A program made the translations under genes and the position numbers. Below the pieces are notes generated by a model. It had not been told where the DNA came from. It did not search any database and saw nothing but the letters and a program-made list of their open reading frames with translations. From Candidatus Pacearchaeota archaeon (GTDB taxonomy: Archaea; Nanobdellota; Nanobdellia; Pacearchaeales; GW2011-AR1): DNA of 47,451 nt. Of the stretch, positions 2,893 through 37,246 are shown one piece after another; the stretch's first letter is position 1; the number at the start of each line of letters is the position of its first letter. Where the stretch lies: contig VGKS01000002.1 of assembly GCA_016866935.1 (NCBI GenBank), positions 1-47,451 of the forward strand, read 5' to 3'.

Positions 2893-3240
2893 ATGGCTAA
2901 TCCAGATTTAATCAAGTTTATTCTTGAAGCAAGAAAAAGAGGATTTACAGATATAAAAATTACAGAATCTCCCTTAAGTAATGGATGGTCAATGCATGAA
3001 ATACACTCCGGCTATGAAGCGTTAAGACAACATCATTTCAAGAAAGGAATAACAATCTGGCTCGACAAAGAAATAATAGATTTGTTAGAAAAAAGAGCAA
3101 AAAGAAATTTGATGACGCTTCCAGAGCAGATAGAGGAGATAGTAAGAAGAAGTATTGCTAGCCAAAGGCCAACCCAACAAAAAGAAAAGTTAGATGATAT
3201 GCTTGTCGGCTTATTTTCAAGAAAATACAGAAAGAACTAA
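2893..3240 (+). CDS. Hypothetical protein with a C-terminal ribbon-helix-helix-like segment
   Basis: ITIWLDKEIIDLLEKRAKRNLMTLPEQIEEIVRR fits the RHH pattern; TTTAAAT about 30 nt upstream. Confidence 0.7.
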   Translation: MANPDLIKFILEARKRGFTDIKITESPLSNGWSMHEIHSGYEALRQHHFKKGITIWLDKEIIDLLEKRAKRNLMTLPEQIEEIVRRSIASQRPTQQKEKLDDMLVGLFSRKYRKN

Positions 3241-3275
3241 ATCCACCATAAATTAATCTCTCTTATTTATAAAAA

Positions 3276-3473
3276 CTATTTCTTTTTATGATGGTATACG
3301 TGAACTATCTTTCTTTTTCCTGGAATTATTATTCCTACAATAAGTAAAAATAAACTAAGCAAAATTAAAGGAATTCCCAAGATTGCTCCTACTATGGTCG
3401 TGGTCAAAATATAACCTATTAAGAAACAGACTAGAGCACCAATTATCCAAGATGTTCTCATAATAAACTCCAA
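3276..3473 (-). CDS. Small two-TM membrane protein
   Basis: Two hydrophobic helices and a basic tail; overlaps the end of the CcdA-like gene. Confidence 0.7.
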   Translation of the reverse strand: MEFIMRTSWIIGALVCFLIGYILTTTIVGAILGIPLILLSLFLLIVGIIIPGKRKIVHVYHHKKK

Positions 3474-4231
3474 GTCAATCCGTAATTAGCGCTTGATATT
3501 CCAAAGGTTATTGTTCCATTTGCCCACAATATCAGAGCTATTCCCAACGCTATCATTATCAATCCAATGAATAATCTCATCCATTTCTTCTGTTTGTCTT
3601 TCCATGCTTTAACAGATTCAGCAGAAACTCCAAATGCTACAATACAAAGTATTATTATCAAAGGCAATACAAATATGAAATTGTAAAGCACAAGTAACCC
3701 GAATACTTCCATGCTAAATCCAACTTTTGTGAGTAGCGTTGTAATAGCTAAATAAGGTCCTCCTGTACAAGGTAATTCAACAGCGGCTACGAATATTCCC
3801 AATAATATTGCTCCTGGAACGGATACCTTCCTCACCATTTTCTTTATCTGTTCAGCTCTTCTAGCAGGAATAGCTAAAGTAATTCCTTTACCATACCAGA
3901 AAAAGTCTTTTGCTTCAATTATTCCTAATATAATTACTAAAACTCCAACAACCCAGCTCAAAGGCTCTGAAATATTAAACTTCTGTATGAATACAAGTAG
4001 ACCAAACCCCGCAATTAAATATGTAAGAAATACAGCAGAAATGTAAATCAATCCAACCTTAACCATCTTAGCCTTATTTTTGCTTAATGCAAGGAGGGTA
4101 GAAATAAGTAAAACTAAAACTCCAATGGCGCAAGGATTGATTGAATCAATTGCAGCAGTTAATATAACTATAGGTAAAGCAGGTAAATTAACAGCCATTT
4201 CAGTAACCATGTGTTTAATTTCTTCCTCCAT
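3458..4231 (-). CDS. CcdA/DsbD-like transmembrane thiol-disulfide electron transporter
   Basis: DSINPCAI and VELPCTGGPY paired Pro-Cys motifs in a 6-TM protein. Confidence 0.85.
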   Translation of the reverse strand: MEEEIKHMVTEMAVNLPALPIVILTAAIDSINPCAIGVLVLLISTLLALSKNKAKMVKVGLIYISAVFLTYLIAGFGLLVFIQKFNISEPLSWVVGVLVIILGIIEAKDFFWYGKGITLAIPARRAEQIKKMVRKVSVPGAILLGIFVAAVELPCTGGPYLAITTLLTKVGFSMEVFGLLVLYNFIFVLPLIIILCIVAFGVSAESVKAWKDKQKKWMRLFIGLIMIALGIALILWANGTITFGISSANYGLTWSLL

Positions 4232-21005: not shown

Positions 21006-22283
21006 TTACTTCTTAGATGTGATCTCTAAGCACACACCAGCTGCAACAGTGCTTCCAGCGTCTCTTACTGCAAATCTAGCCATATTTGGGTTTGTAGCCT
21101 GTGTTTCTAATACAAGGTTTCCAATTGGTTTTAGTCTAACTTTCGCAATATCACCATTCTTCAAGAAATCAGGGTTTGAAACCTTTGTTCCATCAGGTGA
21201 TTGTTTTTCAATTAATTCTACGAATTGGCATGGCACTTGTGCAGTGTGTACGTGGAATACTGGAGTGTATCCCTTAGCAATAACTGTTGGGTGTGAAATT
21301 ATAGCAACTTGAGCAATAAACTCTTGTACAATAGATGCAGGTTGAGCAGCGTCACAAACTACGTCTCCTCTAGCAATATCTTTCTTACCTACTCCTCTAA
21401 TGTTAATACCTACGTTGTCTCCAGCTTCAGCTTGAGGCATTTGTTCATGGTGCATTTCAATAGTTTTAACTTCACCATTGATTCCTGAACCACTTCTTCC
21501 AGGCAATATAACAACTTTCTGTCCTAACTTCATTATTCCTGTTTCAATCTTTCCAACTGGAACAGTTCCGATACCTGTAATTTCATATACGTCTTGTAAT
21601 GGCATTCTTAATGGTAATGATGTTGGTTTGTTAGGTTGCTCAAATAAGTCTAATTGTTCTCTAATTGTAGGTCCCTTGTACCATGGCATGTGTTCAGACT
21701 TCTTAACAACATTATCTCCAAGGTATCCAGCAGCAGGGATGAAAGCCATCGTTTCTGTCTTGTATCCAGCTTGCTTTAGAATTACTGAAACATCAGCTAC
21801 AACTTTCTTGTAAGCATCTTCTTTCCATTGAACAGTGTCCATCTTGTTAACAACAACTGCAATTTGTTTAACTCCCATTGTTCTAAGTAACCAAGCGTGT
21901 TCCTTTGTCTGAGGCTGAACTCCTTCCTGAGCTGCAACTGTTAAGAAAGCTGCGTCAGATTGTGAAGCACCAGTAATCATGTTCTTAATGAAGTCCTTGT
22001 GTCCAGGAGCATCAATTATTGTAACTTCGAATTTATTAGTAATTAATTTTTGATAAGATAAGTCAATAGTAACTCCTCTTTCTCTTTCTTCCTTGAATTT
22101 GTCCATAACATAAGCGAATTCGAATCCAGCTTTGCCATGCTCTTTAGCAATTACTTTAAGCTTATCAAGTTCTTGTGGAGGGATAGCTCCAGAATCGAAC
22201 ATCAATCTACCTATTGTAGTACTCTTACCGTGGTCTACGTGACCCACGAAAGCAACGTTTATTGTTGGTTTTGTTTTTGCCAT
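21006..22283 (-). CDS. tuf: Elongation factor 1-alpha
   Basis: [36 protein letters not shown]. Confidence 0.99.
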
Positions 22284-25947: not shown

Positions 25948-28137
25948 TCACTGATTAGCAGCAAGCCCCTTTCTATCTCTAATCTTGCGTACAACATTCT
26001 CTTGCAATTCACGAGGAAGTTGTTTGAATTCCTGTGTTATCAAAGATGAAACTCCTCTACCTTCAGTAATGCTTCTTAAATCTGATGCCCACCCAATCAT
26101 CTCAGCTACTGGTATCTTAGCCTTAATGAATACGTCAATTCCTTTCTGATCTACATCAATTAGAACTCCTCTCTTAGAAGCAATAAGTCCAGTAACAGAG
26201 CCCATATAATCAAGAGGTGCTTCAATCAAGTGAGTCTGTATAGGTTCTAGTACTGCAGCTCCACCTTTATTCATTGCATCAAACATTCCCAATCTTATAG
26301 CAGGGTAAATCTGAGCAGGGCCTCTATGCATATGGTCCACGTGTAATTTAGCGTCATGTAATATGAATTTTGTTTTCATTAATGGTTCTTTAGCCAACGG
26401 ACCATTATCAACTACAAGTCTCCATCCATCAATTATAGATTCAATTACTTCAGAAAGTAATACTAGACCTCTTGTTTGGTCCTGGAATACATTTCCTTTG
26501 TAAATATCTCTGTAAGCGCGTGCTTCCTCGTTTGAAATTCCCAAATCTGAAAGTTTTTTCCATATATCTTCTGGTTTCTTTTTCAAACGACCCTCAGGAA
26601 TACTTCCGCTTTCAATAGCCTCATAAACATTATCTTCAATAGGCATCATTTCAAGGAAGAATATGTTGTGTCCGTTTCCAGTTCTAGATTCAACTTCTCC
26701 AGAGGCCTTACTGATTGTTTCTCTGTATACAATGATTGGATTACCCATTTTTACTTCAAGACCTTTTTCAGTCTTGATTCTACCTTCAATAATTTCTAAG
26801 TGTAATTCTCCCATACCAGAAAGTAAGTTTTCTCCTGTCTCTTCATTAATTTCAATCTTAACGCTAGGATCTTCTTTTCCAACTTTTCTCAATACTTCAA
26901 TCAACTTAGGTAAATCTTGAGGTTTTGTAACTTCAATAGATTTAGTAATAACTGGTTGGAATATGTGTTTCAATTCTTCAAATGGAGTTTGCTCAGTTAG
27001 AGTAATGGTTTCTCCAACTTCCACATTCACTCCAGAAATAGCAAGTACGTTTCCAGCAGGAACTTCATCTAACTGTTCAGGTTTAACTCCGTTATATACA
27101 AGAACTTGTTGAACTCTAGACTTCTTTTTATTGTTATTACAATAAATCTCCATTCCGGTTTTCATAGTTCCAGAATACAATCTTCCAGCACAAACTTCTT
27201 TACCTGATCTAGGATCAATAACAATTCTAGTAACTACAAAAGCAAGTTCTCCATTCTTATTACATGTAAGCAAATCTTGCCCCATTTTCGAGTCTGAATC
27301 TCCTCTCCATATTCTACCAATTCTATATTTCTGAGCTTCTAGGGGGTTAGGTAAGTGTTTAACAGCCATATCAAGAACTACTTCATGTAAAGGAGCATTC
27401 TTCCATACCCATTCTTTTCTCTTTTCTTCTTCTAATTCATACATTTTAATAATATCTCCAAATGAAATATTTCTCTTCTTCATGAATGGAACAGATAATG
27501 CCCAGTTTTCTCTAGCAGAGCCAAAAGCAACGCTCCCGTCTGCTACGCTTACTCTCCATTTGTCAGCTAGTTCTGGTTCAGCAATTTGTAAAATCAAATT
27601 ATTAAAATCAGCAATAACTTTAGCAAATCTTTCTTGCATTTGCTGCGGAGTAACTTTCAATTCCTTAATCAATCTATCAACTTTATTTATGAATAAAACT
27701 GGTTTTACTCTTTCTCTTAAAGCCTGCTTAAGCACTGTTTCTGTTTGAGGCATGATTCCTTCAACAGCACAAATCAATACAAAAGTTCCATCAATAGCTC
27801 TCATAGCTCTCGTAACGTTTCCACCAAAGTCAATGTGCCCAGGGGTATCAATTAAATTAATCAAATATTCTTTTCCTTCATATTCGTGACCCATACTAAC
27901 ATTAGCAGCGTCTACAGTCATCAATCTTTCTTGCTCGTCCTTGTGTAACCATGTACTCATTCCTTCTTCTAAATCTCCAGCATTTTTGTTAGCCATCATA
28001 CCAGCTGCAGCGAGTAAGTTATCTGTAAAAGCGGTTTTACCATGGTGTATGTGAGCAGAAGTTGCAACATTACGAATATTGTGCTGATTACTTGTCAGTC
28101 TCTGAATTTTCTGTAAACTTGTTTCTTTGTCTGCCAT
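25948..28137 (-). CDS. fusA: Elongation factor 2
   Basis: AHIHHGKT, EQERLMTV, DTPGH, NKVD, EDP, GMGELHL, diphthamide loop HRGPAQ, LRSITEGRG. Confidence 0.98.
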   Translation of the reverse strand: MADKETSLQKIQRLTSNQHNIRNVATSAHIHHGKTAFTDNLLAAAGMMANKNAGDLEEGMSTWLHKDEQERLMTVDAANVSMGHEYEGKEYLINLIDTPGHIDFGGNVTRAMRAIDGTFVLICAVEGIMPQTETVLKQALRERVKPVLFINKVDRLIKELKVTPQQMQERFAKVIADFNNLILQIAEPELADKWRVSVADGSVAFGSARENWALSVPFMKKRNISFGDIIKMYELEEEKRKEWVWKNAPLHEVVLDMAVKHLPNPLEAQKYRIGRIWRGDSDSKMGQDLLTCNKNGELAFVVTRIVIDPRSGKEVCAGRLYSGTMKTGMEIYCNNNKKKSRVQQVLVYNGVKPEQLDEVPAGNVLAISGVNVEVGETITLTEQTPFEELKHIFQPVITKSIEVTKPQDLPKLIEVLRKVGKEDPSVKIEINEETGENLLSGMGELHLEIIEGRIKTEKGLEVKMGNPIIVYRETISKASGEVESRTGNGHNIFFLEMMPIEDNVYEAIESGSIPEGRLKKKPEDIWKKLSDLGISNEEARAYRDIYKGNVFQDQTRGLVLLSEVIESIIDGWRLVVDNGPLAKEPLMKTKFILHDAKLHVDHMHRGPAQIYPAIRLGMFDAMNKGGAAVLEPIQTHLIEAPLDYMGSVTGLIASKRGVLIDVDQKGIDVFIKAKIPVAEMIGWASDLRSITEGRGVSSLITQEFKQLPRELQENVVRKIRDRKGLAANQ

Positions 28138-28189: not shown

Positions 28190-28483
28190 TTAAACGTTGC
28201 CCTTTCTTTTTATTTTTGACATTGGAGTATGTCTTGGAGCGTCAAAATATAATCTAATTCTATTTGGAGAACTTTCTTGTTGATTGTTAGATATTTTTAC
28301 TTTACCATGCTCTCCAAAAGAATATTCTATCCCATAATCATCTAATGTAATTTGAGCGTCTCCAACTGTAACAACAGCATATTTTCTATTATTCTTAGGG
28401 CTAATACCGACATCATCAACAACAAAATCCAAATCTCCTACTCTAATCCCATCTCCTTTTCTTAAACACCATGTAACTCCCAT
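28190..28483 (-). CDS. Small beta-rich protein resembling a tandem CsrA/RsmA fold
   Basis: VTWCLRKGDGIRVGDLDFVVDDV and YSFGEHGKVKI...NRIRLYFDAPRH resemble CsrA [21 protein letters not shown]...NQVRIGVNAPKE. GAGGGA lies 8 nt before ATG 28483. Confidence 0.55.
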   Translation of the reverse strand: MGVTWCLRKGDGIRVGDLDFVVDDVGISPKNNRKYAVVTVGDAQITLDDYGIEYSFGEHGKVKISNNQQESSPNRIRLYFDAPRHTPMSKIKRKGNV

Positions 28484-28500
28484 AGAAATATCCCTCAAAA

Positions 28501-29094
28501 TTATCTAGCAGAATCTGCTTGTTTTTCAGCTTCTGTCTTTTTATTAACAGCATAACTATCCATACTTCCTTCAGAAGCTGCAATTATTTCTTTAGCAAGA
28601 CATTCAGCCATCTTGCTCTTCTTTCCGAATGACTTTTGGAAAGAACCCTGAACCATCCATCTAATTGCTAAATTAACTCTTCTCAAAGGAGAAACGTCAA
28701 CTGCTTGAGGATATCTAGCTCCACCATATTCAATTGTTGTAATCTCATCTCTTGGAGAACCATTCTCAATTGCCTTAACTAAAACTTGAACAGGATTCAC
28801 TTTCTTTCTATCAGCAATTATTTGCAAAGCATCTATTATTGTCTGCATATTTCTTCCATATTTTCCAGAAGAATGAGAAGTAATTATCTTGTGTTTTTTA
28901 CCAACATGTCCGGGAACTGCAAGTCTATTTGCAAATCTTTCAATTATGTGCACTTTTGTCTGAGTAAATTTTCCAACGTTTCTTCCGTGAGATTTAACAA
29001 GTAATTTTGGTTGAATATTTATGTAAGGTGCAAGTGCAACATCTGTAACTTTTACTTCTGTCATGTCGTATAAATCAAATATCTTAAAACTCAT
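28501..29094 (-). CDS. rps7: 30S ribosomal protein uS7
   Basis: NPVQVLVKAIENGSPRDE, GGARYPQAVDVSPLRR, C-terminal ADSAR. Confidence 0.98.
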   Translation of the reverse strand: MSFKIFDLYDMTEVKVTDVALAPYINIQPKLLVKSHGRNVGKFTQTKVHIIERFANRLAVPGHVGKKHKIITSHSSGKYGRNMQTIIDALQIIADRKKVNPVQVLVKAIENGSPRDEITTIEYGGARYPQAVDVSPLRRVNLAIRWMVQGSFQKSFGKKSKMAECLAKEIIAASEGSMDSYAVNKKTEAEKQADSAR

Positions 29095-29372
29095 TGTGTC
29101 AAACCCCTTGTATTTCTTAGCCTTAATGTGACAGACCTATTTCTTACATTTACAGCATAAACATAATCTCTAGCTAATAGGGCATTTCCATCTGAAAGAT
29201 AGACCCCATTATCTGTAGGGATTAAGATCTCATCAATTACAGAACCATTATAAGCAACTCTAACTGGTCGACCATCAGCTATTATTCTTACATTTTTGGC
29301 TCTTCTTTGTTCGCTATTTTGTGATTTAACTCTTCTTTGAGAGAATAATGGTAATGTAAGAAATTCAGTCAT
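29091..29372 (-). CDS. Hypothetical basic beta-rich protein inserted between rps12 and rps7
   Basis: ATGA overlaps at both ends. Confidence 0.75.
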   Translation of the reverse strand: MTEFLTLPLFSQRRVKSQNSEQRRAKNVRIIADGRPVRVAYNGSVIDEILIPTDNGVYLSDGNALLARDYVYAVNVRNRSVTLRLRNTRGLTQ

Positions 29373-29557
29373 GCTACTGCTCCTGCATAGCCAAGTCTAA
29401 TTCTAACTTTAGCACCTGCTCTGTCTGTTTCTTTGATTCCAGTTATGCTCAATGGTCTTTTAAATATGGTATCATTAAAGGTAGCTAAATATTTACTAAT
29501 CCTTTGTCTTGAGCTTAAGTGCACTCTATCATTTCCAGAATCGGGAGTATAAACCAT
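29369..29557 (-). CDS. Hypothetical basic protein inserted between rps12 and rps7
   Basis: TAATG overlap with the rps12 stop; ATGA overlap with the next ORF. Confidence 0.7.
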   Translation of the reverse strand: MVYTPDSGNDRVHLSSRQRISKYLATFNDTIFKRPLSITGIKETDRAGAKVRIRLGYAGAVA

Positions 29558-29979
29558 TATCTTCTTCCCTTTTCTATCTTACCTTTCCACAATAAGTGAA
29601 GTGGCTGATCATTTACTTGAATAACTCTGAATCTAATACCTCTGATGTTTCCTTTAGATCTTCCTTGCTTTCCACCAATTCTTTCAATCATAACTTCATC
29701 GTGTTCATCAACAAATTTTTGAGCTAAGTTTCCAGGGATAAATGCTCCAACGCTAATTCCAGATTTTACAAGCTGAACTTTGCAACATTTTCTCATTCCG
29801 CTAGATGGCTGAGCAGCTTCTTTTTGAAATTTACTTACAACAATTCCTTTAGCTTGAGAAGCTCCACCAAGAGGATCTGCTTTAACATTAAGTTTCAGAG
29901 TTCTAACTTTGTAAGTTCTATCGTTCCATCTGAACTTCTTTCTATTCTTCATTAATTTCTTAGCGTTGAATAAACCCAT
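29557..29979 (-). CDS. rps12: 30S ribosomal protein uS12 (divergent decoding loops)
   Basis: DPLGGASQAKGIV, RKCCKVQL, AFIPG, DEHDEV, KGKIEKGRR; located after nusA. Confidence 0.96.
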   Translation of the reverse strand: MGLFNAKKLMKNRKKFRWNDRTYKVRTLKLNVKADPLGGASQAKGIVVSKFQKEAAQPSSGMRKCCKVQLVKSGISVGAFIPGNLAQKFVDEHDEVMIERIGGKQGRSKGNIRGIRFRVIQVNDQPLHLLWKGKIEKGRR

Positions 29980-30024
29980 GCATAAACCTTCGGTAAAATT
30001 GGTTTTTAAACCTTACTCTAATGA

Positions 30025-30438
30025 TTAAACAACTTTAACTTCTTTGCCGAAATAATCTTTTATAATCGCACTTAATTCCAAAAGTCTTGTTTTATTTCTT
30101 CCAATCAGCGTAGCAGCGCGTTCACGAGAACCTGCTGTAATAACATAAACTCCTTCTTGTAATTCAAAATTATCAAATCCAGCAGGAGAAACAACACTCT
30201 CAACAAATCTTCCGATAGAGTTCAAATCATCATCTGCATCTTTAATTACTCTAATTCTCTTTCCAAGCTGTTCTGAAATAGCTCTAGAGATTTGAGGATT
30301 AGCAGTCTTGCCAAAAAACCTTGCAGGAACAGCAAAATAAATTGTGTTGTTGTAAATGAAACACTTAGTTGCACGAACTCTAGCAATGCGCTCGAAGAGA
30401 TTTATGTATCTCATTGTCTGCATATCAATTATCGCCAT
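30025..30438 (-). CDS. nusA: Archaeal NusA (two KH domains)
   Basis: MRYINLFERIARV..KCFIY, LIGRNK; position between rpoA and rps12. Confidence 0.9.
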   Translation of the reverse strand: MAIIDMQTMRYINLFERIARVRATKCFIYNNTIYFAVPARFFGKTANPQISRAISEQLGKRIRVIKDADDDLNSIGRFVESVVSPAGFDNFELQEGVYVITAGSRERAATLIGRNKTRLLELSAIIKDYFGKEVKVV

Positions 30439-30549: not shown

Positions 30550-33500
30550 TTACTCTTTTTTAGATTTGTTCTTAACCTTCTTATCCACTAGAGCACCTGT
30601 AACTTTTACAAGCAATCCTGGAAGACCAGTTCCTACTGGTATTGGCTGGTTGAGTATAATATTTTCAATTACAGAAGCTAAGTCATCTTTCTTTCCTTGT
30701 ATTGTAGCATTAACAAACTGTTTATCAGGTGTTTCGAATGCTGCACGAGCGAAAATACTTGATTTAGATGAAATAATTCCCATTCTTGTAACTCCCTTAA
30801 CCAATCCTGTGTTTGTCATAGCATCAGATATCAAATCTAAGTGTCTCTCGTCGATATCTAAACCCTGAGAATCAAGAACTTTCTTAATTTCTAGTAAAAT
30901 TGCTTCTCTAGCAGCTTCAATTCCAAGAACAGCTGCAACTTCATGAACGTTGTTTGTGAATACGCGGTCTTTGTCAACTCCTTTGAACCCAATTACTTCT
31001 TTCAAGTTTGATCCAGAAGTCAAAATAACGAAGTCACGTCCTCTGTGAGCAACAACAACTTGAGATATTTGCTTTACTCCTGAAATTATAGTGTTCTTTA
31101 ACTTTTCTTTAACCTTATACATTTCTTTGAATCCCATTTCAGTTGCCTTCAATATGATTGTATTATCTTTTTGCTTAGCGTCAAATCCTTTTTCATTCAA
31201 TCTTTCTGCAATCTTACTAGCACCAACATGTACCCTTTTCAATGCGTCCGAGTCTAATTCTATCTCTATCTTCTTTCCAGAGAAGTCCATCTTTACTTCA
31301 GATGCAATCTCTTCAAGCTTAACTTCTTTCAACTTTTCAGCAATATTTCTTGCATCTTTTTCATTGTTAGAATCTTTGTCCAAGTATATTTCCATTGCAG
31401 GCGTTGAAGGTTCTTTTCTAGCGTCGAATATTTCAATCAAACGAGGTAAACCAAGTGTAACTTGTACTTCAGCAACTCCAGCAGAGTGGAATACGTTCAA
31501 AACCATCTGTGTTGAAGATTCTCCAAATGACTGCGATGTTGTAACCCCAACAGCTTCTCCGGGTTGTATTTTCCTTCCAGCGTGTAATTCAGATACGTCT
31601 TTTCCATCTCCACCATATGAAAATTGAACAATATTTTGTGAAGCGTCTCTTACAGTTCCATCATACTCTACTTTCAAGTCTTGCAAAGCTGAAACAAGTC
31701 TTCTATACAAGTAACCGGATTTAGGAGTTCTAAGAGCTGTATCCATAAGTCCGTCTCTTCCAGTAATTGCTCCAAAGAAGAATTCAGTTGGTTTTAATCC
31801 TTCGAAGAATGAAGACTTAATGAATCCTTTTGCTTCTGATCCAACATCGCCTTTCTTGAAGTGAGATGTTGTTCTTCCATTGTAACCAAATCCAATACGC
31901 TTGTTCCATAAAATCTGCTGACCCACACAACAACCAATCTGAGTAATGTTAGTTGCAGATCCAGCTGCTCCAGACGAAATCATGCTTCCAATAGCAGAAT
32001 CTTTAGAAATATTTTCTTTTACAACTTTACCAACTTCAGTTCTTACTTCATTAAGCACTTGAGATATCTTAATTTCCTTAGTTTCATTAACATCTTTACC
32101 AGGCAATAATTCTAAGTCTCCAGATTTAGCCATTTGATCTATCTTCAATGTCTTTTCATAAGCAGTTTCTATAATCTTTTTAGTAATTTCTCTTACTTTA
32201 GGATTAACATCTAGATCACGTAAACCTAATGAGAACCCTCTTCTTGTAATATATTGGGTACCAAGAGCAGCAGCCTTCTGGATAGAGTCTATAGCAACAT
32301 CGCGTCCATGCTCTTTATCAATTTGTTTAACCATAATTCCCTTTTCCAATCCAAGAGTGTTTTCATCTGTAAGTTCTTTAGGAACTTTAGTAACCTCACT
32401 CTTAGGTATTACTTGAGCAAATACTTCTGTTCCATCCATGTTCTTAGCTGAAGCTTTGTTAACAACTCCGGAAGCGAATAATACTTGGTCAGCATCAGCT
32501 TTAGATAAAGAATCTTTTCCAAGAACATAGTTTCCAGTCAAGGCGTCAGTAATCAAACCAATTAAGTTCGAGTTGTTCTTAGAAGATATAATATTGTGTT
32601 TAATATTTAATAATGTCTCAGCTTCGCTTCTTGCTTCTTCAGTTTGAGGAGAGTGTATGTTAACTTCATCTCCGTCGAAGTCAGCGTTATATGGGAATAC
32701 GACTGCAGGGTGTAACCTAAATGTCTTGTATGGAAGAACCCTTACATAGTGAGCCATCAAACTTTGTTTGTGAAGAGAAGGGTGCCTGTTAAACAATACA
32801 ACATCCCCATCAACTAAATGCCTTTCAACTTTGTATCCAGGAGCAAGTTCAGCACAAATCTCTTCTTTTAATTCTTCAGTAATTCTCTTCTTCTTTCCAT
32901 CAGGTCTTACAACATAATTAGCTCCAGGGTGGGTATCTCCTTTTCTTACAAGAGATTTCATATACTCCAAATTAGCAGTTGTAACTCCTTCAGCCACAGT
33001 GATTATTTTCGCAACTTCAAATGGAACTCCAACTTCATTTAATGCTAAATACGGGTCAGGGGAAACTACGGTTCTAGCAGAAAAGTTAACTCTTTTACCT
33101 GCCAGGTTTTTTCTAATTCTTCCTTCCTTACCTTTAATTCTTTCAGTAATAGTCTTAAGAGGTTGTCCGGATCTGTGTCTTGCAGGCGGAATCTTAGAAA
33201 TGTTATTATCAAAGAATGTTGTAACATGATACTGTAATAAGTCCCAAAGATCTTCAATAATTACTTCAGGAGCTCCAGCGTTCAAGTTTTCCCACAATCT
33301 TTGGTTAGCTCTAATGATATCAGAAATCTTATGAGTTAAATCGTCTTCAGATCTTTCTCCAGTATCAAGAGTAATTGAAGGTCTCATTGTTACACTAGGT
33401 ACTAATAATTGTGAAAGTATTGCCCACTCAGGTCTGAAAGTTTTAGGATTAACTCCTATCTTCTTTATTTCCTCGTCTTTGATTTTAACAAGCATTTCTC

Positions 33501-33993
33501 TTATTTCGTTAGGGAATAATCTCTTCTTTCCAGTATAGAATGAGGTAGGTTTCTCTAGTTTTATTTTTTCAAGATCAACATTACAGTGAGGGCACTTCTT
33601 TTTATCGCGAGCCTTCTTAGCTCTTTCAATAGGGGTATATTTCTTTTGTTTTTCGTCTTCTAAAGTCAATTTACCGCATGCATGACAGAAACTTCTAAGG
33701 AATAATTCAATTAACGGAATATATTTGATATGCACAATTGGTCTAGCCATTTCAATGCTTCCAGGGTGTCCAAGACATTCCTTAAGACGACCTCCGCAAG
33801 TTCTACATCTAACTCCAGGGTCAACCGCTCCCAAACGAAGATCCATTAAACCACCATCCACAGGGAATCCATCTATATCATATAGTTCTGGTGTAACTAC
33901 TTTAGCAGTTGATAGTTTCTTAATCTGTTCAGGATTAACCAAACTAAATCTAAGCGATTTTACTTGTTTCTTAACTACGTCAGGGTTTGCCAT
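30550..33993 (-). CDS. rpoA: DNA-directed RNA polymerase largest subunit, A' and A'' fused
   Basis: CRTC...CLGHPG, GKRVNFSAR, NADFDGD, bridge helix DTALRT..SGYLYRR, continuing into A'' motifs PGEAVG, GLPRLIE and AAFE. Confidence 0.98.
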   Translation of the reverse strand: MANPDVVKKQVKSLRFSLVNPEQIKKLSTAKVVTPELYDIDGFPVDGGLMDLRLGAVDPGVRCRTCGGRLKECLGHPGSIEMARPIVHIKYIPLIELFLRSFCHACGKLTLEDEKQKKYTPIERAKKARDKKKCPHCNVDLEKIKLEKPTSFYTGKKRLFPNEIREMLVKIKDEEIKKIGVNPKTFRPEWAILSQLLVPSVTMRPSITLDTGERSEDDLTHKISDIIRANQRLWENLNAGAPEVIIEDLWDLLQYHVTTFFDNNISKIPPARHRSGQPLKTITERIKGKEGRIRKNLAGKRVNFSARTVVSPDPYLALNEVGVPFEVAKIITVAEGVTTANLEYMKSLVRKGDTHPGANYVVRPDGKKKRITEELKEEICAELAPGYKVERHLVDGDVVLFNRHPSLHKQSLMAHYVRVLPYKTFRLHPAVVFPYNADFDGDEVNIHSPQTEEARSEAETLLNIKHNIISSKNNSNLIGLITDALTGNYVLGKDSLSKADADQVLFASGVVNKASAKNMDGTEVFAQVIPKSEVTKVPKELTDENTLGLEKGIMVKQIDKEHGRDVAIDSIQKAAALGTQYITRRGFSLGLRDLDVNPKVREITKKIIETAYEKTLKIDQMAKSGDLELLPGKDVNETKEIKISQVLNEVRTEVGKVVKENISKDSAIGSMISSGAAGSATNITQIGCCVGQQILWNKRIGFGYNGRTTSHFKKGDVGSEAKGFIKSSFFEGLKPTEFFFGAITGRDGLMDTALRTPKSGYLYRRLVSALQDLKVEYDGTVRDASQNIVQFSYGGDGKDVSELHAGRKIQPGEAVGVTTSQSFGESSTQMVLNVFHSAGVAEVQVTLGLPRLIEIFDARKEPSTPAMEIYLDKDSNNEKDARNIAEKLKEVKLEEIASEVKMDFSGKKIEIELDSDALKRVHVGASKIAERLNEKGFDAKQKDNTIILKATEMGFKEMYKVKEKLKNTIISGVKQISQVVVAHRGRDFVILTSGSNLKEVIGFKGVDKDRVFTNNVHEVAAVLGIEAAREAILLEIKKVLDSQGLDIDERHLDLISDAMTNTGLVKGVTRMGIISSKSSIFARAAFETPDKQFVNATIQGKKDDLASVIENIILNQPIPVGTGLPGLLVKVTGALVDKKVKNKSKKE

Positions 33994-33994
33994 T

Positions 33995-36900
33995 TTATTG
34001 TTCGTATTTGTTCTTTAGTTCAAATGATGTTAATATATGTAATCCAAGTAGTTCTTCAACTAACAACTTGAATGCATATGCAACTTCAATTGGTTCAATG
34101 TCATTTCCTCCGCAAATAGGACAATAAATCTTGTTTCTAATTCCATCTTTAATTCCGATGTTTCCGCAAGATGAACATATATGGATAACGGTCTTGTCAG
34201 AGTCATATCTTTCCTTCAATAATAGGGATGCTCCATGGGCAACTAAAGCTTGCTGCTCCATTTCTCCTAATCTTAATGCTCCCCCTCTTGCTCTTCCTTC
34301 AACTGGTTGACGAGTCAATAATGTTACTTTACCTGAAGCTCTAGCCTGCAACTTGTTCTTAACCATGTGAACAAGTTTCAAATAATACATGTTACCAACA
34401 TAAATTCTAGCATCCATCTTTCTTCCTGTGACTCCATCATACATTTCTTCTTTTCCATCAAAGCTAAAGCCCATATGGGTAAGTTGTTTTTCTAAGTCTT
34501 CAACTTTAGCACCTGTGAATGGCGTTCCATCAATAAATCTTCCTGTAATTGCTCCAACTTTTCCTGCTAAGACTTCAATCATATAACCAACAGTCATACG
34601 AGAAGGAATACCATGGGGATTGAAAATCAAATCAGGTTTAACTCCTTTATTTGTGAATGGAATATCTTTAGGATCTGCAAGTAACCCAACTACTCCTTTC
34701 TGTCCGTGAGGTGTAGAGAATTTATCTCCGGGCTCAGGTAATCTATGGTCTCTTATTCTTACTCTAGCAATCTTGTTCCCTTCTGAATCAGTTGTAATGA
34801 ATACAGAGTCTACTATTCCAGATTCGCCTTGTTTAATAGCAACGCTTCCCTCTTTCTTCGACTGTATGCTTAAGTTTCTTGCTTCAGACAAGAACTTAGG
34901 AGGCGTTGTTTTACCAATAATAACTTCGGATGAAGATAATTGAGCTTCAGGGTAAACAATTCCATCATCTTCTAAGAACCTATAAGATGCTTCAGTTCTA
35001 TATCCAGAAACATCTTTCTCGGGAATAGTTATCTCGTCTTTTAATCCACCAGCATAATTGAATTCAACAGACTCGTATGGTTTGAAGTATGTACTTCTGC
35101 CCATTCCTCTTTCGACTGAAGCTCTATTAAGAATTGTAGCGTCTTCTAAGTTATATCCTTCATATGGCATAACCGCAACTACAATATTCTGTCCAGCAGG
35201 ATATAATTTCAATGTATCAAATACGAATGACTTTACAAGTGGGTTCTGAGGATAGTGAAGAACAGATGAGTTTGTGTCCATTCTTACAAGATAGTTAGCA
35301 GCATAAATTCCAAGTGACTGTCTTAATGTTTTACTTCCTCTTAATAATCTAGAAGCCTGGTCATGATTTGCAAAAGGCACAAGTGATGTTACTAATCCAA
35401 ATATAGCAACAGGGTCAATTTCTAAATGAGTATTCTTATCGCTAACTTGCTCAGGCGTCTGAGCAACAAATGCATCTTCTTCCTCAGCAGCATCGATATA
35501 TTCTACAACTCCTTCTTTAATTAATTCTCTCCAGTTTAATGATCCTTGTTCTAACAATACTAAGTGTTCATCTTTAAGTTTTGATGCTCCATGTTCAACG
35601 ACAATCAAAGGTCTCAATACTCTTCCAACCTCTGTTGAAATAACAATAGTCTTAGCAGGACTATCACTGGTTATGCTTAACTCAAGAGGGAAATGTGCTT
35701 TTCTTCTTTCTTTTCTAACAGCAGAAACAAATGCATCAACATCTTTAGCCATTCCAATATATTTACCGTTGAAGAATACATCTTTTCCAGATTCTTCATT
35801 TAATCCAAGAGATTGTATTGTTTTTACTGTTGTTTTCTCATCTAAGTCAATTGAGTTTGATATCCTTGATAATATAGCAAGGTTCTTTCTTAATCCAATT
35901 TCAGTTCCTTCAGGTGTTTCTGTAGGACAGAACCTACCATAATGTGTAGGGTGAAGAGTACGTGCAAGGAAGTTCTCTTGTTCATCTGGAAGCATAGAAG
36001 ACACTCTCTGTAATGAAGATAACATATCAAGATAGTTGTTCTTCGACATGTTCTGAGTAACTCCAGATCTTTCTCCAATCCAGGCTCCTGTAGCAATAGC
36101 GCTTTCAACTCTGTGTGTGAACAAAGTAGATTTAGCAACAGTCTTTACTGAATAGAATTTTTTTCTCTTTGCAACTTTCTGCAATGTATATTGAATATCT
36201 TTTACTAATATATTCATATTTACCCTAAATAAATCAGCTAACAAATCTCCAGACAATTTAATTCTCTTATTAGCATAATGGTCTTTGTCTGTTCTCAATC
36301 CATCATCTTGTTTAGCTTGTAAGAATTGTTTAAGCATTTTACATAAGTTAATAGCTTTCTCCATTCTGTTTTCTTTTGTTAAACCAATGTGAGGCAAGAA
36401 GTATGAATCAACTCTCTGTTTCACTCTATCTAATATTTCCTTTTCCGTTCCTTGTATTCCAGATAATTCAGCAACCTGCATGAATGCACCCTTAGGTTGC
36501 TGTATCTTAGCATATTCGTACAAGTTAACAATAACAGCATCATCTTGTCTTCCAATATACTTAGCAATTTCAGCTTCAGTTAATATCCCAAGAGCTTTAA
36601 TCATAACAAGAGCTGGAATATTCTTTAATCTTGAGAATGTAACTTCCAATATGCCTTCAGCTGTTTCTGAAATAGTAGTAGGAATTCTATAAGGTCCTCT
36701 TTGAGAAAACATACGTAATGTTAATCCTCTTCTGCCTTCTTCTATAAATGGCTGGTTAGGAGCAAGATCCTCAGCCATAACAATAACTCTTTCATTTCCG
36801 TTAACAATAAAGTATCCTCCAGGGTCAAGAGGATCTATTAATGCTTCTCTTAATTCATCTTTACTCATATCATGAGTGTTACATATATCGCTTTTTACTA

Positions 36901-37246
36901 TAACTGGTATCCTTCCAATTTCAACTTCAGCGCTATCAGAATTATCTCCAAAATTAACTGTTATCTCTACATAGATTGGAGCAGAATAAGTTATTCTTCT
37001 CAGTCTAGCTTCAGTTGGAGTTATTAATGAAATGCTTCCATCTGATTCAGTAACATTAGGCTTTCCAATTCTTACTTTTCCAAATTTTATTTTTACCTCA
37101 TCTTGGGGAATAGTATCGTTAAGTTCGTAAACAATTTGCTGCATCCTTCTTGTAACAAAATCGTTGAAACTTCTAATACTTGATTCTACTAGTGAATGTT
37201 GTTGTAAATACTTCTTTATCAGAATGTGTTTATCAGCAACGCTCAT
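33995..37246 (-). CDS. rpoB: DNA-directed RNA polymerase subunit B (unsplit)
   Basis: GGYFIVNGNE, CPTETPEG, GYNLEDA, GDKF...HGQKG, RLGEME; C-terminal Zn ribbon. Confidence 0.99.
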   Translation of the reverse strand: MSVADKHILIKKYLQQHSLVESSIRSFNDFVTRRMQQIVYELNDTIPQDEVKIKFGKVRIGKPNVTESDGSISLITPTEARLRRITYSAPIYVEITVNFGDNSDSAEVEIGRIPVIVKSDICNTHDMSKDELREALIDPLDPGGYFIVNGNERVIVMAEDLAPNQPFIEEGRRGLTLRMFSQRGPYRIPTTISETAEGILEVTFSRLKNIPALVMIKALGILTEAEIAKYIGRQDDAVIVNLYEYAKIQQPKGAFMQVAELSGIQGTEKEILDRVKQRVDSYFLPHIGLTKENRMEKAINLCKMLKQFLQAKQDDGLRTDKDHYANKRIKLSGDLLADLFRVNMNILVKDIQYTLQKVAKRKKFYSVKTVAKSTLFTHRVESAIATGAWIGERSGVTQNMSKNNYLDMLSSLQRVSSMLPDEQENFLARTLHPTHYGRFCPTETPEGTEIGLRKNLAILSRISNSIDLDEKTTVKTIQSLGLNEESGKDVFFNGKYIGMAKDVDAFVSAVRKERRKAHFPLELSITSDSPAKTIVISTEVGRVLRPLIVVEHGASKLKDEHLVLLEQGSLNWRELIKEGVVEYIDAAEEEDAFVAQTPEQVSDKNTHLEIDPVAIFGLVTSLVPFANHDQASRLLRGSKTLRQSLGIYAANYLVRMDTNSSVLHYPQNPLVKSFVFDTLKLYPAGQNIVVAVMPYEGYNLEDATILNRASVERGMGRSTYFKPYESVEFNYAGGLKDEITIPEKDVSGYRTEASYRFLEDDGIVYPEAQLSSSEVIIGKTTPPKFLSEARNLSIQSKKEGSVAIKQGESGIVDSVFITTDSEGNKIARVRIRDHRLPEPGDKFSTPHGQKGVVGLLADPKDIPFTNKGVKPDLIFNPHGIPSRMTVGYMIEVLAGKVGAITGRFIDGTPFTGAKVEDLEKQLTHMGFSFDGKEEMYDGVTGRKMDARIYVGNMYYLKLVHMVKNKLQARASGKVTLLTRQPVEGRARGGALRLGEMEQQALVAHGASLLLKERYDSDKTVIHICSSCGNIGIKDGIRNKIYCPICGGNDIEPIEVAYAFKLLVEELLGLHILTSFELKNKYEQ

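Follow-up and report, generated by a model that had tools for sequence, protein, structure and literature searches.

A natural five-substitution genotype in the decoding loops of ribosomal protein uS12 from a clade of Pacearchaeota

Ribosomal protein uS12, the product of rps12, carries five substitutions in its two decoding-centre loops in a clade of Pacearchaeota: K42A, N45S, A47G, D88N and P90R in Escherichia coli numbering. The gene was studied in contig VGKS01000002.1 (positions 1 to 47,451) of the Candidatus Pacearchaeota archaeon assembly GCA_016866935.1; this whole stretch of 47,451 nt is referred to as the window and its source genome as G000 (685,645 bases in 43 contigs, 88.6% complete). 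The protein itself is a known uS12, and what is new is the natural five-substitution genotype of its decoding loops. We regard it as reasonably probable that the gene encodes the functional, single-copy uS12 of the clade, and that the decoding-centre contacts of this working protein were re-wired in two steps, with the changes within each step compensating for one another.

The 140-residue uS12 is encoded at 29557..29979 on the minus strand. Loop 1 (the 'PNSA' loop, residues 54-64, 29788..29820, minus strand) reads EAAQPSSGMRK (GAA GCT GCT CAG CCA TCT AGC GGA ATG AGA AAA) and loop 2 (the 'PGVR' loop, residues 109-117, 29629..29655, minus strand) reads KGNIRGIRF (AAA GGA AAC ATC AGA GGT ATT AGA TTC), where relatives have EAKQPNSAMRK and KGDIPG(I/V)R(F/Y). 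E. coli numbers were anchored on the motif names used in published papers (PNSA = 44-47, PGVR = 90-93, D88 and K42/K43) and not on an alignment to E. coli S12. On this scale the consensus residues K42, N45, A47, D88 and P90, which are highly conserved without being family-defining, are replaced by A, S, G, N and R, corresponding to local residues A56 (29812-29814), S59 (29803-29805) and G61 (29797-29799) in loop 1 and N111 (29647-29649) and R113 (29641-29643) in loop 2, all on the minus strand. The window protein keeps P44, S46, R49, G91 and R93 (local P58, S60, R63, G114 and R116), of which P44 and S46 contact the codon-anticodon helix. A first-pass annotation of this DNA had listed the same five substitutions, and the letters at these positions bear it out. 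Its wording that both universally conserved loops had been rewritten was too strong. Pyrococcus has PNSG, another archaeal uS12 has EARKPNAA and Micrarchaeota have PHSG and GSIPG, and the five residues named above are kept in the window.

The identity of the gene is clear. Its product matches Pfam Ribosom_S12_S23 (PF00164) at 109.1 bits against a cut-off of 22.3 (E 1.2e-31, profile positions 2-109 of 110) and matches 81 distinct PDB sequences from archaeal and eukaryotic ribosomes at E<=0.001, the best of which are archaeal uS12 proteins (E about 4e-42, residues 2-140). No canonical second rps12 was found in the 88.6% complete assembly, a six-frame PF00164 search of which returned this one match at E<=10. 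Relatives likewise have one uS12 gene each; the two matches in G008 are overlapping pieces at contig ends. The letters are also supported by independent data, since contigs from all four public metagenome runs examined span 29540-29990 without one differing letter. Three of these runs (X15, X16 and X17) are not flagged as a possible source of the assembly, and one (X1) is.

The distribution of the substitutions was determined in 41 genomes surveyed at the own, genus, family and order levels, of which 37 gave a uS12 match; close homologues carry the public names Candidatus Pacearchaeota or Nanoarchaeota. The five-substitution motifs were unchanged in all 13 complete genes of one clade (G000-G004, G006, G009-G014 and G016), and for that reason are not an assembly or sequencing artefact. 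In a further member, G005, the gene is cut by the contig end: loop 1 is of the derived type and loop 2 falls outside the contig. Comparing the 13 clade genomes with 23 others, positions 59 and 61 are fixed as S and G in the clade against invariant N and A elsewhere, position 111 is N in 13/13 against D in 23/23, and S73, an Asn to Ser change in the KNG turn (29761..29763, minus strand), is S in 13/13 against N in 23/23. A form with only two of the five substitutions, EAAQPNSAMRK with KGDIRGIRF, was found in G008, which has the same genus label, and in G018 and G021 from other genera of the family. Canonical loops occur in G015 (again with the same genus label), G017, G022 and G024, and the other families of the order are mostly of the canonical K...P type. 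K42R was seen in G036. Loop 2 also varies in other ways within the order, with GDIPC (G91C) in eight genomes from other families (G026, G027, G029, G030, G032, G034, G037 and G039), GDLSGVIY (P90S) in G019 and GDMGGVRY (P90G) in G033. Among the genomes compared, the five-substitution state is confined to this clade. The loops also vary elsewhere in DPANN archaea, as in the PHSG/GSIPG form of Micrarchaeota.

The derived residues are fixed under strong purifying selection. Between G000 and ten other clade members, synonymous differences in rps12 range from 0.26 to 0.76 per site and non-synonymous differences from 0 to 0.036. In four genomes the uS12 protein is identical while the neighbouring NusA and uS7 proteins are only 76-92% identical. 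The residues are kept across different codons: A as GCT, GCG or GCA, S59 as TCT, TCG, TCC or AGC, G as GGA or GGT, N as AAC or AAT and R as AGA or AGG. Ser59 is thus encoded by both the TCN and the AGC codon families within the clade, and R113, AGA or AGG in the clade, is CGT in G018 and G021. The changes are also focused on uS12. When columns with a residue common to the whole clade and seen nowhere else were counted, over the same genomes for each protein, uS12 had 5/140, four of which lie at otherwise invariant positions (N59S, A61G, N73S and D111N). The corresponding figures are 0/158 for uS4 (located by TIGR01018, PF00163 having failed to find it), 1/245 for uS5, at a variable site, and 11/729 for the elongation factor aEF2, only two of which are at conserved positions (E665K and D701T, both in domain V). 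This concentration in uS12 indicates a focused remodelling rather than part of a general loosening.

In order to place the changes in sequence, a set of 156 uS12 proteins was assembled from 36 genome rows and the 120 best matches in a collection of 5.8 billion proteins. The states at positions 42 and 90 were A/R in 64, R/P in 44, K/P in 40, A/P in five, and K/S, K/G and A/gap in one each. All 64 rows with R90 have A42 (K/R, 0/156), and A42 occurs without R90 in five. This asymmetry fits an order in which R90 was suppressed by a pre-existing A42, and the data fit A42 arising first and R90 second. The full five-substitution state was found in 19/156 rows (13 genomes and six database proteins) that group together on the uS12 tree with a support of 91 (SH-aLRT). 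K42A and P90R are widespread in the family; N45S, A47G and D88N are confined to the one clade and arose once, after K42A and P90R. A public contig of 766 nt (P0005) joins loop 1 EAAQPSSGMRK to a canonical loop 2, KGDIPGVRF, and has a divergent C-terminus. Recombination, an intermediate state or a chimeric assembly could account for it.

A species tree was built from concatenated uS4, uS5 and aEF2 (28 genomes, 1120 columns). All 14 clade genomes fall on a single branch (SH-aLRT 99). Its sister is G015, which is K/P (support 94), followed by G008, which is A/R (support 99), and then by the pair of G017 (K/P) and G018 (A/R). On this tree the carriage of A42/R90 requires at least three changes, and a tree with all carriers as a single clade was rejected (lnL -114, p-AU 9e-72), in a test framed after the tree had been seen. 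Either positions 42 and 90 changed state jointly on several occasions, or rps12 was exchanged allele by allele. Since both positions lie within one gene of 420 nt, paired mutation and allele exchange are indistinguishable.

These positions are known from bacterial genetics. K42A, like R53A, makes E. coli ribosomes hyper-accurate; K42 contacts the phosphate of C912 electrostatically, the PNSA and PGVR loops are joined by a hydrogen-bond network in which the D88 carboxylate meets N45 and R49, and of bacterial sequences 96% have Lys and 4% Arg at position 42 (PMC4224418). Bulky substitutions of P90, including P90R, cause streptomycin dependence in Thermus, mutations of K42 are internal suppressors of such P90 mutations, and E. 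coli dependence mutants are also known at P41, K43, P44, N45 and G91 (PMC3884664). On the rRNA side, the methyl of m7G527 occupies a pocket that uS12 helps to form, adjacent to Asp89 (= D88) (PMC7550191), and G527:C522 is a Watson-Crick pair of helix 18 (h18) in the streptomycin pocket (PMC5435857). Among the papers that literature searches listed there was no report of a natural K42A/P90R pair, Table S1 of PMC8570412, with the archaea surveyed there, not being covered, and none of the four papers naming both DPANN and uS12 is on the decoding loops by its title or abstract.

We also looked at 16S rRNA, aligning the sequences of the clade and its relatives with an E. coli copy for numbering. 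G000 has one 16S gene, on contig C5. Position 522, within the 530 loop, is U in 4/4 clade 16S. The other 16S of the order with coverage there, including those of G008, G018 and G021, all have C (15/15). A 19-mer with U522 was found in 6/401 genomes of the order, all of them clade members (G000, G002, G009, G011, G013 and G016), although the denominator overstates the comparison because many of the 401 genomes have no assembled 16S. In all, 39 columns are private to the four clade 16S, and at about 16 of these the 12 other 16S of the order are invariant; several of the private changes are compensated stem pairs (688/699, 921/1396, 988/1217 and 1310/1327). At the top of helix 44 (h44, about 1404-1411 and 1489-1497) and in helix 27 (h27, 910-915) the clade is the same as the canonical relative G024. 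The idea of the first-pass annotation that rRNA changes may compensate for the remodelled loops finds support in that an rRNA change accompanies them: h18 has the clade-only C522U, while h44 and h27 have no conspicuous change. As an aside, U522 mismatches the region of the widely used 515F primer and may matter for amplicon surveys of the clade.

The other partners put forward in the first-pass annotation were not supported. No conspicuous change was seen in aEF2, where no clade-specific change falls at a conserved position in the domain IV region, and none of the columns counted above for uS4 and uS5 is conspicuous. Three small open reading frames (ORFs) between the rps12, rps7 and fusA genes, of 62 amino acids (29369-29557), 93 amino acids (29091-29372) and 102 amino acids (28190-28498), all on the minus strand, had been proposed as inserted compensating proteins. 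They have no Pfam match and were found only in G000; no tblastn match was obtained in the loci of 29 relatives, including 12 genomes with identical uS12 loop motifs. The 62- and 93-residue ORFs overlap the start or stop codons of their neighbours, and in relatives rps12 and rps7 lie between 0 and about 900 nt apart. The changes at conserved decoding sites were restricted to uS12 and h18.

Taken together, these data suggest the following two-step scheme, in which we infer the residue contacts from papers on bacteria. In a first step, shared with other genera of the family, K42, the anchor of loop 1 to the rRNA backbone, was replaced by Ala and loop 2 gained an Arg at P90. Because P90R alone cripples tRNA selection and K42 changes suppress P90 mutants, the natural A42/R90 combination can be read as an epistatic pair. 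In a second step, restricted to this clade, D88 and N45, hydrogen-bond partners bridging the loops, became Asn and Ser, together with A47G. On the same branch, C522U turned the C522-G527 pair, which forms a wall of the pocket next to residue 88, into a U-G wobble. The five substitutions amount to two known interacting pairs (42/90 and 45/88) and one mild change (A47G), a two-step, paired pattern that the first-pass annotation had missed. The net effect of the five may be compensated rather than simply additive. The result is probably a working ribosome whose set-point is shifted modestly towards the slow, accurate ('restrictive') side, neither defective nor error-prone, and which is probably insensitive to streptomycin-type drugs. 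The altered fidelity proposed in the first-pass annotation is plausible, though the genome itself has no sign of altered fidelity or frame maintenance, with 40 tRNAs for 20 amino acids and the genes examined open under table 11. A tRNA with a four-base anticodon, predicted by ARAGORN in its intron-less mode, proved to be an artefact that disappeared once introns were allowed (40 tRNAs). A stronger version of the scheme is possible but doubtful: a rebuilt decoding latch, in which the charge of K42 has moved to R90, the Asp-Asn bridge has been replaced and the 16S pair has become a wobble, would be a drug-free counterpart of the laboratory 'dependent plus suppressor' state, with constitutively restrictive, accurate and slow decoding.

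Several points weigh against the two-step scheme. C522U is only one of the 39 clade-specific 16S columns and could be coincidental. Moreover, with one origin each, the second step and C522U provide just one instance of co-occurrence. C522 is kept in 4/4 16S of Micrarchaeota with D88S, from which it follows that replacing D88 needs no change at 522, and a general link between D88 and C522 was rejected on this ground. The joint switching of positions 42 and 90 may reflect replacement of whole alleles by recombination or transfer. The uS12 tree is poorly resolved, a sign test of the 42/90 coupling on it was powerless, with two independent pairs on well-supported branches, and the rejection of a single clade of carriers was, as stated, tested after the fact. 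The five A42/P90 sequences indicate that A42 is viable without R90. Lastly, all contact data come from bacterial ribosomes, and archaeal uS12 has Q at the position of E. coli K43.

Four other explanations were weighed. The substitutions and C522U could be uncoupled, slightly deleterious accidents, fixed by nearly neutral drift in the small populations of symbionts with tiny genomes. The loops of DPANN uS12 do vary in several lineages (G91C in eight genomes, P90S in G019, P90G in G033 and the PHSG/GSIPG form of Micrarchaeota), and the clade has its 39 private 16S changes. However, drift sits poorly with the strong purifying selection on the derived residues across 13 species-level genomes and with the concentration of changes in uS12, when uS4, uS5 and aEF2 have almost none at conserved sites; nor would it predict that R90 never occurs without A42 (0 of 64) or that the pairs coincide exactly with positions for which interactions are reported. 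We consider it unlikely. We give a similarly low likelihood to adaptive tuning, in which the changes were selected for more accurate or slower decoding, as has been proposed for the K-to-R variant of thermophiles. E. coli ribosomes with K42A are hyper-accurate (PMC4224418), accuracy rises with K60R in flies, worms and yeast (PMC8570412), and K42R is itself common in the family (44/156). Compensation and adaptation look alike from sequence alone, which blunts the case for tuning. The habitat may weaken it further: 17 lake-water metagenome runs contain half or more of the sampled words of the window, so the argument from heat made in PMC8570412 would probably not apply. In two RNA runs (X19 and X20) only 0.04 of the sampled words matched.

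Natural resistance to an antibiotic acting at the decoding site, whether streptomycin-like or a compound binding between uS12, h18, h27 and h44, appears improbable. Archaeal ribosomes are generally poorly sensitive to streptomycin, which counts against it, and there is no known producer or exposure. It is true that K42, N45 and P90 are sites of streptomycin resistance or dependence in bacteria (PMC3884664), that D88 and G527:C522 lie in or beside the streptomycin pocket, and that loss of G527 methylation gives low-level resistance (PMC7550191, PMC5435857). However, the same residues hold the decoding site together, and such an overlap is expected under any model. Least credible of all is an artefact: the gene might be a pseudogene or stem from a chimeric assembly, or it might be a divergent paralogue whose canonical partner was lost in binning. 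An assembly that is 88.6% complete leaves some room for it, as does the P0005 contig with its derived loop 1 and canonical loop 2. Against this, G000 and its clade relatives each gave one six-frame match, the operon position is kept, purifying selection is strong, and 13 independent genomes and four metagenome runs agree.

Comparison with known systems sets the genotype apart in several respects. Canonical archaeal uS12, as in the 30S subunit of Pyrococcus furiosus/abyssi (PDB 4v6u), matches the window protein over its full length (E 4.7e-42, residues 2-140), is of the same length class and has the same place in the operon. Pyrococcus uS12 has PNSG, i.e. the A47G change alone, which it shares with the window protein along with P44, S46, R49, G91 and R93; a second solved archaeal uS12 in PDB has EARKPNAA in loop 1. 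The window protein differs from canonical archaeal uS12 by K42A, N45S, D88N, P90R and N73S, the canonical residues being invariant in the 23 other genomes except at 42 and 90, where most have them. The nearest laboratory parallels are the rpsL P90L/R/W dependence mutants with K42 suppressors of E. coli, Salmonella and Thermus thermophilus, which involve the same two positions, a bulky residue at 90 and loss of Lys42. Unlike these, the pair seen here is natural, known from sequence, fixed in many species under purifying selection and associated with no known drug. The K-to-R variant of (hyper)thermophilic archaea replaces the same lysine of KQPNSA (PMC8570412), but the clade has Ala instead, combined with P90R, and the DNA of the window occurs in lake-water metagenomes; Arg is seen in 44/156 of the Pacearchaeota-related sequences. 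Martinez-Miguel et al. 2021 state that evolution has selected no alternative to this lysine other than Arg, and that Arg is confined to (hyper)thermophiles (PMC8570412). The clade, with its Ala, contradicts that generalisation.

A second case of loop remodelling was found in Micrarchaeota. A broader search of 1.84 billion cluster representatives gave 1062 matches at E<=0.001, and positions 45, 49 and 88 were aligned in 127 of the best 150. The residues at these positions were N/R/D in 116, H/I/S in four, A/T/S in one, C/R/D in two and N/G/D in one, with three frameshifted artefacts. Every genuine replacement of D88 among these 127 (five) comes with replacement of both N45 and R49. The Micrarchaeota form, EQKQPHSG(L/I)(I/V)KC ... 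GS(I/M)PG(V/I)R(Y/F), was read in 59/80 fetched loci. As in the clade, the residues bridging the loops change together (N45H, R49I and D88S, plus A47G). Unlike in the clade, K42 and P90 are kept in most and, as noted above, C522 of 16S is kept. DPANN archaea thus have at least two independent re-designs of the decoding-loop site. The Micrarchaeota 16S came from five source genomes picked via a search for PHSG/GSIPG uS12, the motif pair being read in four. C518, one of the bases monitoring the wobble pair, is G in one Micrarchaeota 16S and A in another (L152 of G043 and L153 of G041); two further sequences keep C518. Large insertions were also seen in uS12 itself. The Pacearchaeota-like P0121 (468 amino acids, 71% identical to the window uS12) has about 330 residues inserted exactly between N45 and S46, and the Micrarchaeota-like P0166, P0181 and P0199 (about 650 amino acids) have an insertion just after the ..KC of loop 1. 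These are apparently inteins.

The rps12 gene occupies the usual archaeal rpoB-rpoA-nusA-rps12-rps7-fusA cluster, with the same neighbours in relatives. In the window, rpoB lies at 33995-37246 and rpoA, on the minus strand, at 30550-33993. The latter is a single ORF of 1147 amino acids with Rpb1 domains 1-5; in most archaea, subunit A of RNA polymerase is encoded by separate A' and A'' genes. A NusA-like KH protein (30025-30438, minus strand; KH_5 at 20.6 bits, below the cut-off of 27) is encoded directly upstream of rps12 and is kept next to it in relatives. Downstream are rps7 (uS7, 28501-29094, minus strand, PF00177 6.6e-36) and the aEF2 gene fusA (25948-28137, minus strand), recognised by its Pfam domains; aEF1A (21006-22283) belongs to the same cluster. 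The aEF2 open frames of two relatives are unusually long, at 1221 amino acids (G015, contig C27, L169) and 1218 amino acids (G030, contig C8, L176), with the N-terminal 50-70 residues matching separately, which suggests that each contains an intein.

Other features of the 16S genes deserve mention. C1382A was seen in all seven 16S from A42/R90 carriers that cover the site (four from the clade and those of G008, G018 and G021) and in 0/12 other 16S of the order. In G000 an insert of about 825 nt (contig C5, about 2963-3787; L032 2810-3634) splits the 16S gene directly after G1401, in the decoding and P-site region, and its DNA encodes what reads as a LAGLIDADG-like motif. The 16S of G002 is interrupted by about 700 nt at this site and by further insertions, while the large insertions of G008 lie more upstream. 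In each of the 18 genomes of the order whose 16S reaches the 3′ end, the sequence reads GTCGTCACAAGG (GTTG or GTCGA in some) against GTCGTAACAAGG in E. coli, with C at position 1499.

K42, the PNSA loop and the GD(I/L)PG loop of uS12 are near-invariant parts of the accuracy centre of the ribosome, known almost wholly from laboratory mutants. One archaeal family holds a natural graded series of genotypes at this site, running from K/P through R/P, A/P and A/R to A/R with N45S, A47G, D88N and 16S C522U, and every form in it is under purifying selection. For the study of translational accuracy the interest lies in these graded genotypes and in the correction of a published generalisation, and the series turns questions about epistasis and the accuracy set-point into transplantation experiments. 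If the stronger version, with a rebuilt decoding latch, is true, it would offer a stepwise view of evolution crossing a fitness valley at a site that is among the most conserved in the ribosome, and slow, accurate decoding would be suited to a slow symbiotic life.

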